Positions 54,607 through 61,626 of a stretch of 62,225 nt of DNA are shown here, piece after piece; position 1 is the first letter of the stretch, and each line of letters starts with the position of its first letter. The notes below the pieces were generated by a model. The model ran no database searches. It was given only the letters and a program-made list of their open reading frames with translations, and was not told the origin of the DNA. Position numbers and translations under genes: made by a program. The DNA comes from Lysobacterales bacterium (GTDB lineage Bacteria; Pseudomonadota; Gammaproteobacteria; Xanthomonadales; SZUA-5), in contig JALHMH010000027.1 in assembly GCA_022844165.1 (NCBI GenBank), forward strand, positions 1-62,225. Reading direction: 5' to 3'.

Positions 54607-55446
54607 TCACTGCCAAGCGACAACGTAGGCCAGCCAGAGCTCCTTCTCGCGCAGCGCATTTACCGGGCCAAGTTCAACGTGCGTGCGCCCGTCGCGTTGC
54701 TCGGCAGTGTGGCGCCAGACCTCGGCACGCGCAAACCCGCTTTCGAGCAAACCTTCGCACAATTCCGGCAGGGTCCACAGCCGCCAGTCGTAGCGAAACG
54801 CGTTGCGGCGCTGGCGCCGCCCGCCGCGCGCGGCGGTGTCTGGCCATTCGAAGTGGATGCGGCAATCGATGCGCGCTGTGGCTGCGTCGAAACTGCGGTA
54901 TTCAAACAAGTAATCGAACGGTGCCAGCGGCGGTTGTCCGGGTTCTACGCCCGGCGTCACCGGATATCGATCGATTCGGTGACGCATGCATGCGGGGCCG
55001 CCGAAGGTGTTGACGATCACGATTCCTTCAGCAGCAATACAACGACGTGCATGTTTGAAATAGCTGAGCAACGCGCTGCGATCATGCCAATAGCCGATGC
55101 TGAAGTTGAGCGCGGCGAGCACATCGACCGGGTCCACAGCCGGTGGCGCCAAACGGAGCACATTGGCCCGGTGGAAATCGATACGTGCAACATCGCCGCC
55201 GAGCAGGCAGCCCGCGCGGGTTCGGGCATGTGTCAGTGTAGGCGCATGACGATCGACGGCAATGGCTCGGCGCGCTGACGAAGCTGCAACAAAGGCGACT
55301 GAATCGGCAGCATTGCCCGCGAAGTCCTCGCGCAGCAACAATGGCTCGCGGCCGCGAACTCGCTGGTAGACCGCCGCCAATAATGCGGCCTGGGCAGCAG
55401 GGTCCTGCGTTGCCCAGCGATATCGATACAAGAGTTCATCGTCCAT
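54607..55446 (-). CDS. class I SAM-dependent methyltransferase
   Basis: LREDFAGNA (motif I-like), AIAVD, ANVL, DVLAALNFS, EGIVIVN, FRYDWRLWTLPE; ATG at 55446. Confidence 0.8.
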   Translation of the reverse strand: MDDELLYRYRWATQDPAAQAALLAAVYQRVRGREPLLLREDFAGNAADSVAFVAASSARRAIAVDRHAPTLTHARTRAGCLLGGDVARIDFHRANVLRLAPPAVDPVDVLAALNFSIGYWHDRSALLSYFKHARRCIAAEGIVIVNTFGGPACMRHRIDRYPVTPGVEPGQPPLAPFDYLFEYRSFDAATARIDCRIHFEWPDTAARGGRRQRRNAFRYDWRLWTLPELCEGLLESGFARAEVWRHTAEQRDGRTHVELGPVNALREKELWLAYVVAWQ

Positions 55447-55632
55447 TGACGGCTCCTGGACTGCCTGGTTGTCGTACCTGAGTTGGCACGCGCAAAGAAA
55501 GTCGTGGTGTCGTTTTGACTGCGCTACTACGTCTCTATTACTGACCCGATCACCGGGCCGAATTCCCCGTTGATGGGCGATTCGAGACGCAAATTCATTG
55601 CCGCGCGTCCCGGCGTGCTCGAGGAGTATCGA

Positions 55633-55782
55633 ATGAACACGGAACAAAAGGAACACGAAGCGAATCAAGACCCTGTACCTGCAGATATGGCGCCGGAATC
55701 CGACCCCAAAGGTGGTCTGATTGGTTTGCTGCTCCCAGCAGTGCAAAAGGTGCGCGAGGCTGCCAGACGCGGAACGAGTTGA
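55633..55782 (+). CDS. double-glycine leader precursor peptide A (49 aa; core LIGLLLPAVQKVREAARRGTS)
   Basis: GAGGAG RBS; 28-aa leader ending DPKGG; paralog of peptide B; upstream of a C39 transporter. Confidence 0.85.
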   Translation: MNTEQKEHEANQDPVPADMAPESDPKGGLIGLLLPAVQKVREAARRGTS

Positions 55783-60300: not shown

Positions 60301-60448
60301 ACACCGGCTCAGCACGATTCGCGATGCCGATCGCATTGTGGTTCTGGAAGGCGGTCGTATTGCAGAGAGCGGCACGCACGACGAGCTGCTCGCCTTGCGC
60401 GGTTTGTACTTTTACCTATCCAGTCAACAGATGGGCGATGCTGCATGA
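57368..60448 (+). CDS. peptidase-containing ABC transporter (2x cNMP-binding, C39 peptidase, ABC TM, ATPase)
   Basis: cNMP: IVREGD..FGESAL..RVAGVRA and IIVEG..FGEISL..PRATSVQA; C39: QIDEMDCG, NHWVVV, ADP; GRSGCGKT, LSGGQRQR, DEATSALD. Confidence 0.93.
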   Translation: MSAALRESLAIDEALSSPLLRFVPPEFHADLRARCLVENYAFGDWIVREGDLADAFYLLLSGRARVVKAGADGREVPLNRLVAGDAFGESALIAGGVRVAGVRASTSVSVVRLSRAHVLDLVAACPELKDGLERLARWRTVHGFLKSHAVFAALPEAALDALIGEFRPQRAAAGDSIIVEGAPPGPMYCLREGRARAFTGAPDLGEHRAFYRAGDLFGEISLICDTPRATSVQAVSDCELLVLDELAFARLRQREPAFERLLHQRREMYRADSLARVPLDFAEELLPADARAPIVAPQESMPEQEPRRTLRRIPFVAQIDEMDCGAAAFAMVCRHFGRNLSLSRIRELCHTAHDGTSLRGLIGAANEVGLAARALKVSPQHMTQMPLPAICHVEGNHWVVVYRIDRRHVYFADPATSHERQTHDEFRARFSGYAALFDYVQGPAPELPAPQGLAWLRPFVTQNSSSLALAAALAFIAATLGLLFPILTQFVVDRVIVDHDLELLAVLVPSMLGALALLVAAQWIQHYLMSYVAVRVDSAALDFLTRRLLSLPMTYFLSRRTGDIQRRLDGARVLRQFVVEQGLDGALALLQLMGCLALMLLYSAKLAALYLLLAPLYVVLMVYSRHVLRPLYAELETAYGRYASQQIDAIKGIEAVKAAAAEQRFRDTILSQFLKVSRQQFRGNLAVLGFQSALQALGLLGTVLFLWLGARAVVAGDLTVGAFVAFSSLMAMASGAILRALGTWDGLQFVSVLLERLNDVVEPEPEQGRDRSGLKAVPTLEGRIELRNVSLRYGGPESAQVLSDVSLDIPTGETIALVGRSGCGKTSLAKLIAGLISPTAGEIHFDRTDHRKLNHRELRQRMGIVLQENHLFDDTIARNIDFGSVEPDMDRVRWAARMANADGFIERLPLGYETRVGETGLLLSGGQRQRIAMARAIYPDPPVLIFDEATSALDSESERVIQRNLRELTRGRTCIVIAHRLSTIRDADRIVVLEGGRIAESGTHDELLALRGLYFYLSSQQMGDAA

Positions 60449-61626
60449 ACCCTTTCGACTCAGCGTCGGGGTTGCTGCCAACGGATCCGCCGGCTCTTGC
60501 AGTCCGTTTGGTCGCCGTCTTACTCCTGGTAATGGCGTTGGCGGCTTTGCTTTTCGCAATCCTCGTACCTCTGCCAGAGACCGCACGCGCGCCGTTCGTA
60601 CTCGAGCCCATGGACGCGGCGGCAAGCGTGCAAGCGCCAGTCGCTGGGCGCGTAGAGCAGGTGTGGATTCGTGATGGCGATGTGACGCGGCCTGGGCAGC
60701 CGCTGTTCGACGTCCGCAGCGATGAACTGCGCGATGCCGATACGCAGTTGCAAACACTGACGTTGGATCAACGTCGATTACAAGTTGAACGCGAGCAAGT
60801 TGATCTTAGCCACGCACAAGCGCTGGCAGCTATCGATGCGGAAGCCGAATTGGTTGATCGCGAATTGGCGCTGCGCAAGGCGCACGATGCCGATGTACGT
60901 GCACTGTTGGCGCGCAAAGAGAAAGCCGTCGCAGATGGACTGCTGGCAGGCATCACTGTATTGGAAGACCGCCTGCGTGCGGCAGATTCGGCGCAAATGC
61001 GCGTGCAAGCCGAGCAGCGACTGCAGCGCCTCGGCGCCGAGCGCAACTTGTTGGTGTCGCGTCACGCGCAACAATCAGGTGCCGAGCAGAGTGAGCTTGC
61101 GAAATTGGCGTCCCGCATCGCTGCGCTGCGCGCGCAAATTGGCCCTGCGAGCGCCGATCGTCGTGTCGTACGTGCCACGCGCGACGCCGTGGTCGTAGGC
61201 GTCCGGGTTTCGCCCGGCGACGAATTGGCGCGCGGCGACGAACTCGCGAGGCTGGTTGCCGTGGACGCACCGTTGCAGGCGCGCCTGCAACTGGCTGAAC
61301 GCGACCTCGAGCGACTGAGAACTGAGCTGCCGACGCGGCTTTTTCTGAGCGCCTTCCCGCACGAACGTCACGGCACAGTGGCGGCCACGATTCGATGGCT
61401 AAGCCCGGCGAGCGACGAAGATTCGTTTCAGGCACTAGCCACGCTGGGTGTGGTGCCGACAGATATGCAATTGCGCCCCGGAATGCGCGGCGAAGCACGC
61501 GTCTTGCTGGGCCGCAAGACGCTCATGCAGCGCTTTCTCGATAGCGCGCGCGGCTTGCGTGAACGCTGGTGGATAGAGCCCAGCGCATTGGCGAAGCCCG
61601 ACCACTCGACCGGATCGCCTCTATGA
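60445..61626 (+). CDS. HlyD-family membrane fusion protein
   Basis: N-terminal TM, VQAPVAGRV, GQPLF, coiled coil, AFPHERHGTV, LRPGMRG. Confidence 0.88.
   Translation: MNPFDSASGLLPTDPPALAVRLVAVLLLVMALAALLFAILVPLPETARAPFVLEPMDAAASVQAPVAGRVEQVWIRDGDVTRPGQPLFDVRSDELRDADTQLQTLTLDQRRLQVEREQVDLSHAQALAAIDAEAELVDRELALRKAHDADVRALLARKEKAVADGLLAGITVLEDRLRAADSAQMRVQAEQRLQRLGAERNLLVSRHAQQSGAEQSELAKLASRIAALRAQIGPASADRRVVRATRDAVVVGVRVSPGDELARGDELARLVAVDAPLQARLQLAERDLERLRTELPTRLFLSAFPHERHGTVAATIRWLSPASDEDSFQALATLGVVPTDMQLRPGMRGEARVLLGRKTLMQRFLDSARGLRERWWIEPSALAKPDHSTGSPL

Follow-up and report, generated by a model that had tools for sequence, protein, structure and literature searches.

The window, by which we mean the whole contig JALHMH010000027.1 of a Lysobacterales bacterium (assembly GCA_022844165.1; 62,225 nucleotides), carries near its right end a cassette that encodes short peptides with double-glycine (GG) leaders next to a putative export apparatus. 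The source genome (G000) comprises 4.68 Mb and is 99.97% complete. In the first of these peptides, precursor A, 16 of the 21 core residues are those found at positions 16–31 of the mature DUF1559 prepilin-like proteins of Gemmatales. Judged from sequence comparison, the cargo cores of this peptide family are shown to be copies of hallmark linear motifs of DUF1559/H-X9-DG prepilin-like proteins. Our leading, still tentative, interpretation is that the cargo is a secreted competitive mimic that would interfere with the DUF1559-type pilus systems of Gemmatales.

The Cargo Cores Copy Hallmark Motifs of DUF1559 Prepilin-like Proteins

Precursor A (positions 55633–55782, plus strand) consists of 49 amino acids, a 28-residue leader ending in DPKGG and the 21-residue core LIGLLLPAVQKVREAARRGTS. 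Its ATG is preceded at a distance of 6 nt by the Shine–Dalgarno (SD) sequence GAGGAG. Precursor B (56000–56152, plus strand; 50 amino acids) follows the SD sequence GGAGGAG and possesses a leader of the same type, also 28 residues long and with a terminal DPKGG, but a diverged core, VVPIPGHTILQKVREIAIRPGT, of 22 residues as calculated from the length of the peptide. The two precursors are 49–50% identical. A third open reading frame (ORF; 56384–56521, plus strand), which ends in ...KPVDGLVHLPAAQKVRDAAFRIEY and contains the core-like stretch LVHLPAAQKVRDAAFRIEY, has QKVRD in common with them. It lacks the GG, an ATG, and an SD sequence (its best start is the GTG at 56384), does not appear in the results of the peptide searches of its own genome, and is a probable decayed precursor copy.

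In an alignment of 21 precursors, Asp-18, Pro-21, and Gly-28 are invariant and Lys-26 and Gly-27 are at least 90% conserved; the leader signature reads D-[LM]-x-P-x-x-D-x-K-G-G. Neither precursor A or B nor the third ORF has a match in Pfam or NCBIfam. In particular, precursors A and B match neither PF07963 nor PF07596 and no NCBIfam model, TIGR02532 included, and the leaders of the window match neither the NHLP nor the Nif11 model of NCBIfam.

The core was compared with the 20 best DUF1559 paralogues of the Gemmataceae genome G007, which we aligned by anchoring them on their FTLIE motif. All 16 residues of the shared stretch match positions 16–31, with the proline at position 22. Nearly every position agrees in 19 of the 20 paralogues, the odd row (L095) being mis-anchored; position 27 is occupied by valine (QKVR) in 7 of the 20 and by isoleucine (QKIR) in 13. 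The prepilin P0073, which contains both PF07963 and PF07596, is identical to the core of precursor A at 18 of 21 residues. In three further Gemmatales prepilins (L016, L022, and L026), the motif is located exactly at the junction of the N_methyl and DUF1559 regions, and the Pfam model of DUF1559 begins inside it.

With precursor A as query, 40 small proteins were retrieved, all with the near-identical core (L)IGLLLPAVQKVREAAR(R). This core comes in two formats, either behind a GG leader or at the extreme C terminus of a protein with a Sec signal (in Sphingopyxis and others). One of the matches, P0039, is a true prepilin N terminus with the same string. The original prediction, made from the DNA letters of this locus, had spoken of pilin-motif peptides that match no class that can be named. 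Both statements hold, the first in that the core equals pilin residues 16–31 and the second in that no curated Pfam or NCBIfam family covers the peptides. Its description of a minimally modified amphipathic peptide family is incomplete, because the core is an exact copy of that Gemmatales DUF1559 segment.

The second hallmark of these prepilin-like proteins, the C-terminal H-X9-DG motif (TIGR04294), is absent from the peptides of the window and occurs in sister peptides, alone or fused to the first motif. In a Chthoniobacteraceae genome (L031, G004:C224, ∼9270–11510, minus strand), six GG precursors with near-identical, lysine-rich leaders are arranged in tandem. Three of their cores contain the 16–31 motif (in one case fused to HAGGLNVLLGDGSVRN), one is only H-X9-DG-like, and two are unrelated. 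The fused peptide, IGLLVPAVQKVREAAGHAGGLNVLLGDGSVRN, scores 26.2 bits with TIGR04294 (H-X9-DG-CTERM), above the cut-off of 19, and also matches positions 243–259 of the 268-position DUF1559 profile. A HlyD gene lies near the array, and the operon of the same genome that encodes a peptidase-containing ABC transporter (PCAT) with cyclic-nucleotide-monophosphate (cNMP)-binding domains is found on a separate contig (L030). A homologue search with the H-X9-DG-only precursor gave no candidate with three shared words. In a Sphingopyxis locus (L060), two of three tandem GG precursors combine the first motif with DGSV, and the remaining one consists of HPGGVNILLADGSVR alone. Peptides from Vicinamibacteria (L027) and from the carrier genome G001 (L034) likewise feature the 16–31 motif followed by a DGSV-type segment. 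With the peptides of these four loci, both hallmark motifs of one protein family appear as peptide cargo.

Carrying a net positive charge, the core of precursor A is built as a block amphiphile from a hydrophobic head (LIGLLLPAV) and a basic tail (QKVREAARR). These properties, together with the GG leader, PCAT, and HlyD protein that form the classic export set of bacteriocins and microcins, speak for a generic cationic membrane-active peptide, in which LIGLLLPAV would insert, QKVREAARR would anchor, and the likeness to pilins would reflect common descent from a transmembrane-plus-amphipathic segment. We consider this unlikely, because such peptides do not require 16 identical residues across phyla and because sister cores that contain only the hydrophilic H-X9-DG motif cannot act in this way. 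Moreover, an immunity gene is not present, and some cores are as short as 13–15 residues (LPAVQKVREAASR).

Three other assignments were considered and dropped. Truncated or minor pilins do not fit, as the precursors have no prepilin motif and possess a GG leader and an SD site instead. For a PEP-CTERM-type sorting signal the hydrophobic run of only ∼9 residues is too short, and the motif is often internal or located before long tails. A lanthipeptide or another known class of peptides made by ribosomes and modified after translation (RiPPs) would call for a modifying enzyme, of which there is none, and the cores lack cysteine.

Owners and Carriers of the Motif

DUF1559 (PF07596) has 62 matches in Gemmataceae G007 and none in G000, G002, G003, G004, G005, G009, G010, G045, and G148, so that a DUF1559 gene is absent from 9 of the 10 carrier genomes tested, the genome of the window included. 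Exact coding sites for LLPAVQKVR number 13, 14, and 41 in three Gemmatales genomes and one or two in seven carriers, where they represent the peptides themselves. Chance is excluded for this 9-residue DNA pattern, because the reversed-pattern controls gave no match in any of the 10 genomes. The motif is missing from all 11 prepilin N-terminal domains that G000 itself encodes. In the phylum that bears the pilins, the exact variant has a narrow distribution, and thus the peptides copy the Gemmatales-type variant; because it is rare there and other clades use QQAR, the peptides are also more uniform than the pilins. In G001, 30 ORFs of 145–473 amino acids match only the first 25–130 positions of the DUF1559 profile, which suggests a divergent pilin-like family that shares this N-terminal region.

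The peptides could instead be directed at the producer itself, with the segment docking on pilins or the platform of its own type IV pilus or type II secretion system and tuning their assembly. Such a role would suit the 11 prepilin-type genes of G000 and the Sec form, which goes to the periplasm of the producer without a dedicated exporter. However, export by PCAT and HlyD proteins bypasses the periplasm, as established for this transporter type, the copied variant is that of Gemmatales and not the producer's own pilin sequence, and other forms of the motif are surface-anchored or secreted as large proteins. We therefore give a self-directed function only a slim chance.

Other carriers were collected by scanning one genome for each species with a pattern that demanded codons for Gly, Ala, Pro, or Arg four residues before LLL. 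Of the 25 loci found, 13 encode GG peptides, 9 encode larger proteins in which the copies are internal or in tandem, and 3 encode pilins, a split that is not a census, because the pattern favors GG peptides and excludes ordinary pilins. The GG peptides represent about 8 phyla and stem from Chloroflexota, three verrucomicrobial, two acidobacterial, and three alphaproteobacterial lineages, Hydrogenedentota, and one unclassified genome. The Sec form was detected in 38 of 81 genomes of the genus Sphingopyxis (E ≤ 1e-13), or in 37 of 80 without G011, which is flagged as unpublished and was left out of all sequence comparisons. Its gene stands alone, flanked by DUF188 and Mpo1-like genes, with no transporter nearby.

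Among 12 Sphingopyxis genes, not one shows a residue change from position −6 to position +11 relative to the motif, although up to four codons are used per position. Signal peptide and linker vary, unlike the core, and the DNA coding for the motif differs between phyla. In these comparisons of coding sequences, purifying selection is shown to act on the core. Such conservation leaves close to refuted the notion that the ORFs of the window are debris, that is, fragments of horizontally acquired pilin genes that lie near a transporter by accident. The decayed third copy and the position of the locus at a contig end with repeats would be in line with debris. In precursors A and B, however, both leader and SD site are intact, the residues of the core stay the same while their codons change, and the peptides are found again in over 10 lineages and in nearly half of the Sphingopyxis genomes, which makes this explanation highly improbable.

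Several larger proteins contain the motif in multiple copies. One family of ∼310 amino acids (P0041, P0042, P0044, P0047, and P0048), the N-terminal signal of which features two arginines and appears similar to a twin-arginine translocation (TAT) signal by eye, possesses four to five copies, with QKVREAA and QAAREAA mixed and GDGSV segments interleaved. One member is labelled Actinomycetota, and no Pfam family scores above its cut-off. A PEP-CTERM protein carries three copies and a Solimonas protein two terminal ones. An ORF of more than 2100 amino acids (L008:1661–7999, plus strand) combines FG-GAP and FecR domains with several tandem copies separated by glycine-rich linkers and shows a weak, sub-threshold match to T4 gp19. 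In Anaerolineae (L009, L010, and L024), proteins of ∼430–580 amino acids possess a C-terminal block NALIGLLLPAVQKVR...GDGSV..., and two of them (L009 and L024) contain TSP_3 and SH3_3 domains. By their motif content, these three hold both DUF1559 motifs inside a non-pilin protein. The core is not tied to one exporter, because it also follows other GG leaders and Sec signals and forms part of large proteins.

Within the order of the window, GG-type peptides are present in 3 of 249 genomes; they are absent from the only other member of the genus whose genome was searched. In the two other carriers, G148 and G182, the same cassette consists of a methyltransferase, two to three precursors, and the PpiC-like, PCAT, and HlyD genes; its flanks are different, and only this block is shared. 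The cassette common to G000, G148, and G182 contains no further conserved ORF that would qualify as an immunity gene. The locus is accessory, as had been suspected before, is patchy in its distribution, and moves as a cassette.

The Export Operon and Its Relatives

Downstream of the precursors lie a PpiC-like gene with a GTG start (56544–57371), the PCAT gene (57368–60448), and a gene for a HlyD-family membrane fusion protein (60445–61626; HlyD_3, 5.4e-14), all on the plus strand. The stop codon of the PpiC-like gene overlaps the start codon of the PCAT gene by 4 nt (ATGA at 57368–57371), and the same 4-nt ATGA overlap connects the PCAT and HlyD genes (60445–60448). The three genes are a translationally coupled operon. 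A double-glycine leader thus adjoins PCAT and membrane fusion protein genes, the arrangement by which class II microcin and bacteriocin loci are recognized.

The PCAT comprises two N-terminal stretches that match cNMP_binding (3.5e-37), followed by Peptidase_C39 (2.1e-33), ABC_membrane (1.5e-35), and ABC_tran (6.3e-33). Residues 13–721 of the queried part align with the solved structure of PCAT1 (4ry2; 3.1e-105). The C39 domain contains Cys-324 in DEMDCGAA and His-397 in GNHWVVV, motifs that are also visible in the orthologues from L028 and L030. This putative catalytic pair is proposed by the analogous 73-residue spacing of Cys-347 and His-420 in HetC and not by an alignment. Among curated models, the PCAT comes closest to HlyB-type type I secretion (TIGR01846) and NHLP-type exporters, yet it stays below every cut-off; with TIGR03796, the equivalog of the NHLP export PCAT, it scores 506.5 bits and does not reach the 853.3 bits demanded. 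The HlyD protein scores 45.6 bits with TIGR03794, below the 156-bit cut-off.

For the PpiC-like protein, the Rotamase_2 match (E = 0.0075) is below the cut-off, and the parvulin assignment is weak by sequence. An AlphaFold2 model has a mean predicted local distance difference test (pLDDT) score of 66, with blocks of ∼86–94 across residues 141–250. The top Foldseek matches of this model are PrsA, SurA, and PEB4, with E-values down to 2.5e-6. The predicted fold supports the parvulin call, namely a SurA/PrsA-like protein with a parvulin domain. Because no N-terminal signal peptide is seen by eye, we take the protein as cytoplasmic. It has no match at E ≤ 0.1 to TIGR04500 (named "putative peptide maturation system protein"), and its homologue from L030 scores 43.3 bits with this model (cut-off 180). 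A complex prediction of the PpiC-like protein with a precursor scored 0.17 against a mark of 0.32 and counts neither way.

Divergent from the precursors, a gene on the minus strand (54607–55446) encodes a class I S-adenosylmethionine (SAM)-dependent methyltransferase-like protein of 279 amino acids. Methyltransf_25 matches it only at E = 0.032, its homologue from L093 at 3.2e-5, and its language-model (Atlas) features lie at 0.98 to methyltransferase clusters. Homologues that are 55% identical stand in the cassettes of G148 and G182 despite the different flanks, and tblastn searches of the remaining operon loci (Opitutus, Chthoniobacteraceae, G001, and 17 more) were negative. Only in the family of the window is the methyltransferase part of the cassette. 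Five of the 22 metagenome loci described below (L062, L063, L072, L075, and L078) feature a 458-residue class I methyltransferase between the HlyD and PpiC-like genes, and the two enzymes show no pairwise likeness.

Methyltransferase and PpiC-type partner might tailor the core, so that a mature RiPP and not the linear motif would be the active product. The retention of the methyltransferase in three genomes with different flanks and the unrelated class I methyltransferase in the five metagenome loci point in this direction, as does rosaritide biosynthesis, in which a PpiC-type protein of TIGR04500 is described, in passages of PMC13097080, as an obligatory partner. Nevertheless, genes for ATP-grasp, LanM, YcaO, and radical SAM enzymes were not found within 49.9–62.2 kb, nor does the locus encode another core-modifying enzyme; TIGR04187, the model of the ATP-grasp graspetide synthetase, has no match in the whole genome, whereas control genomes were positive. 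In addition, the methyltransferase is missing from all those other operon loci, and the same core occurs behind Sec signals with no enzymes nearby. We regard tailoring as quite improbable, although it and competitive mimicry could both hold.

Every gene and ORF that the original prediction had listed is present at the coordinates it gave. The three paralogous ORFs, two of them with 28-residue leaders ending in DPKGG, were recovered, they precede the coupled operon of PpiC-like, cNMP-C39-ABC, and HlyD genes, as its domains and 4-nt overlaps attest, and known RiPP enzymes are lacking in the searched region and genome. The head-to-head methyltransferase and the parvulin exist as genes; the sequence assignments of both proved weak, and fold and relative made them clearer. 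Insertion-sequence debris at the right edge was not substantiated. The contig end (61627–62225) contains two ∼70-bp direct repeats (61990–62225) and an ORF of 56 amino acids (61871–62041) for which Pfam holds no family; they may represent a small mobile element at which the assembly broke off.

The divergent intergenic region (55447–55632) presumably contains the promoters. Scans for a sigma-70-like promoter in 55300–56700 found none, and the −24/−12 consensus of sigma-54 has 133 matches in the window against 136.6 expected, with only a three-mismatch site at 55484 near the precursors. Directly 3′ of precursor A, a GC-rich hairpin is predicted on the plus strand (55791–55827); the fold of 55775–55880 amounts to −49 kcal/mol (z = −3.1, equaled by 1 of 200 shuffles), with no U-tract downstream. 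A second hairpin follows precursor B (56213–56248, plus strand; fold of 56145–56260, −46.4 kcal/mol, z = −2.8, equaled by 1 of 200 shuffles). Stem-loops are commonly found 3′ of bacteriocin precursor genes, with which both hairpins are consistent. Further upstream, an ORF of 809 amino acids (49892–52321) resembles phosphomannomutase/phosphoglucomutase in its C-terminal part by eye and carries an N-terminal extension of ∼350 residues that includes a hydrophobic stretch; the ORF at 53651–54250 has no Pfam family.

The operon itself belongs to a wider family. Baiting metagenome contigs with an alignment of the PpiC-like protein yielded 22 loci, in 17 of which a cNMP-PCAT gene adjoins the PpiC-like gene. 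A leader search of these loci produced 14 candidate precursors, one of which looks spurious, in 9 loci. They share a lysine-rich leader (...[KR]DLxPKKDxKGG), followed by unrelated, mostly hydrophilic cores. In Opitutus, a peptide with the family leader and the unrelated core GLKSINHNEIVVSAAGR is encoded directly 5′ of the PpiC-like gene (L028:5633–5770, minus strand), and the pilin-motif peptide of this organism lies on a different contig from the operon. The operon family is wider than the pilin-motif cargo and not dedicated to it. The earlier expectation that homologous loci would carry pilin-motif ORFs applies to G148 and G182 and to none of the 22 baited loci.

Of 27 clustered operon loci, 5 or 6 contain a gene for a sigma-54 activator after the HlyD gene (L068, L071, L073, L074, L079, and, as the sixth, L080); the one scanned, L071, matches Sigma54_activat (2.6e-60) and HTH_8. 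Where precursors were found, which is the case in all of these loci but L080, they lie beyond the activator gene. This suggests sigma-54 control in the clade of L068, L071, L073, L074, and L079.

An activator gene between HlyD and the peptides, as well as the great diversity of cores behind the same leader, would also befit signalling peptides, the export of which is gated by a nucleotide second messenger and which are sensed by producers or neighbors. HetC, the only studied cNMP-PCAT, has been proposed as exporter of a developmental signal; as given in passages of PMC10986499, it bound guanosine tetraphosphate (ppGpp) rather than cyclic AMP in vitro, and its substrate is not known. However, neither a receptor nor a two-component pair is encoded in the cassette, a signal specific to one species would not recur unchanged in different phyla or equal a foreign pilin, and the window has no conspicuous sigma-54-like promoter. 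A signalling role appears rather unlikely to us.

Related Systems and Proposed Action

Class II microcins and bacteriocins leave the cell via a PCAT and a HlyD-type adaptor, an example being the CvaAB system of MccV. By architecture, the cassette works like such an export locus, and beyond generic Pfam domains no curated cut-off is reached. GG leader, C39-ABC transporter, and membrane fusion protein are encoded in one locus, and the cargo appears unmodified and linear. In contrast to these systems, the cores comprise only 13–22 residues, no immunity gene is present, the PCAT possesses two N-terminal cNMP-type stretches and is coupled to a SurA-like parvulin, and the core copies a foreign pilin motif. 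In the word-searched text of a 2025 microcin survey (PMC12219008), the terms pilin, Planctomyc*, Verrucomicrobi*, parvulin, mimic, and cyclic nucleotide do not occur.

The transporter shares with HetC of Nostoc PCC 7120 the domain order, with a cNMP-type domain at the N terminus and C39 and ABC domains behind it, and the distance between the presumed catalytic residues. It differs from HetC in that cNMP_binding matches two stretches and that a HlyD gene is coupled, whereas none is located near hetC, as far as passages of PMC10986499 describe it. Similar to the cassette, the rosaritide (mir) cluster combines a SurA-like PpiC-type protein and a PCAT with small precursors. According to passages of PMC13097080, it encodes MirC (TIGR04500, PpiC-type, SurA-like), MirD (a TIGR03796 PCAT), and the ATP-grasp enzyme MirB, and MirC acts as a partner protein to which these passages assign no isomerase role. 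Unlike mir, neither the cassette nor the genome of the window contains an ATP-grasp gene, and the PpiC-like protein does not match TIGR04500. The NHLP/Nif11 export sets (TIGR03796, TIGR03797, and TIGR03794) provide the best NCBIfam likeness of the PCAT (506 bits), whereas the scores of the window stay under the respective cut-offs of 853, 709, and 156 bits.

With the DUF1559/H-X9-DG prepilins (PF07963 plus PF07596, TIGR04294), the peptides share identical residues 16–31, including Pro-22, and, in the sister peptides, H-X9-DG-CTERM. Unlike these proteins, they have no prepilin leader, FTLIE N terminus, full transmembrane helix, or globular domain, and they leave by PCAT or Sec, mostly in genomes without DUF1559. 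DUF1559 proteins are heavily expanded, with 68 copies in Planctopirus limnophila, two of which are essential (PMC10632474), and 91 copies in Tuwongella immobilis (PMC8567305), and their function is not known according to passages of both papers.

In the mechanism that we propose, the precursors would be recognized through the conserved leader, and the cytoplasmic SurA/PrsA-like protein would most likely hold or present them. The C39 domain would cut after GG, and PCAT and HlyD protein, presumably with a TolC-like channel encoded elsewhere, would push the core out, a step that would probably be controlled by a nucleotide bound to the two cNMP-type domains. The parts of this export route are provided by domains and gene order, from which we infer cleavage and export. 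Outside the producer, the core would act as a competitive mimic that occupies the partner site of the DUF1559 pseudopilin segment. Candidate partner sites in Gemmatales-type Planctomycetota are the neighboring subunit, the assembly platform, and the prepilin peptidase, and their occupation would disturb the assembly or function of pilus-like fibers. The segment of type IV pilins that extends to Pro-22 is located in the filament core and, before assembly, at the membrane surface; a free copy could compete for its binding partner. The missing immunity gene fits competitive mimicry, because a producer without a DUF1559 protein would need none.

Several observations weigh against this proposal. 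Neither DUF1559 motif occurs in any of the 14 leader-bearing peptides of the 22 baited loci, and the carrier G001 itself contains the 30 ORFs with N-terminal-only DUF1559 matches. In the pilin-bearing phylum, the exact QKVR variant was found in only 2 of 121 sampled genomes, and the looser LLPAVQxxREAA in 4 of 61, two of which have QQAR; two motif-bearing proteins come from Phycisphaerae, which are Planctomycetota as well. Instead of the tracking of a target, recent horizontal spread or a constraint peculiar to the peptides could account for their uniformity. The Sec form has no evident route across the outer membrane and may act in the periplasm of its producer. The proposal also leaves unaccounted for the path of the peptide to the periplasmic face of the inner membrane of the target.

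Our literature search, which did not extend to supplementary tables, found no paper with the motif string or on pilin-mimic peptides, and the cargo family appears undescribed and unexpectedly specific. It is possible, if doubtful, that many phyla secrete or display exact copies of both Gemmatales DUF1559 motifs and thereby poison or hijack fiber assembly, which would make the peptides a new kind of "assembly-mimic" antagonists. If so, interbacterial antagonism would operate through a copy of the victim's own assembly interface, with specificity provided by the sequence of the victim and no immunity needed in the producer. The uncharacterized operon family of SurA-like parvulin, probably nucleotide-gated PCAT, and HlyD protein is wide and has a recognizable leader, which aids the mining of short peptides missed by annotation. 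DUF1559 is the largest paralogous protein family of Planctomycetota, and secreted peptides with its motifs give a direct experimental probe; if the proposed mimicry is true, they would be the first functional handle on this family.

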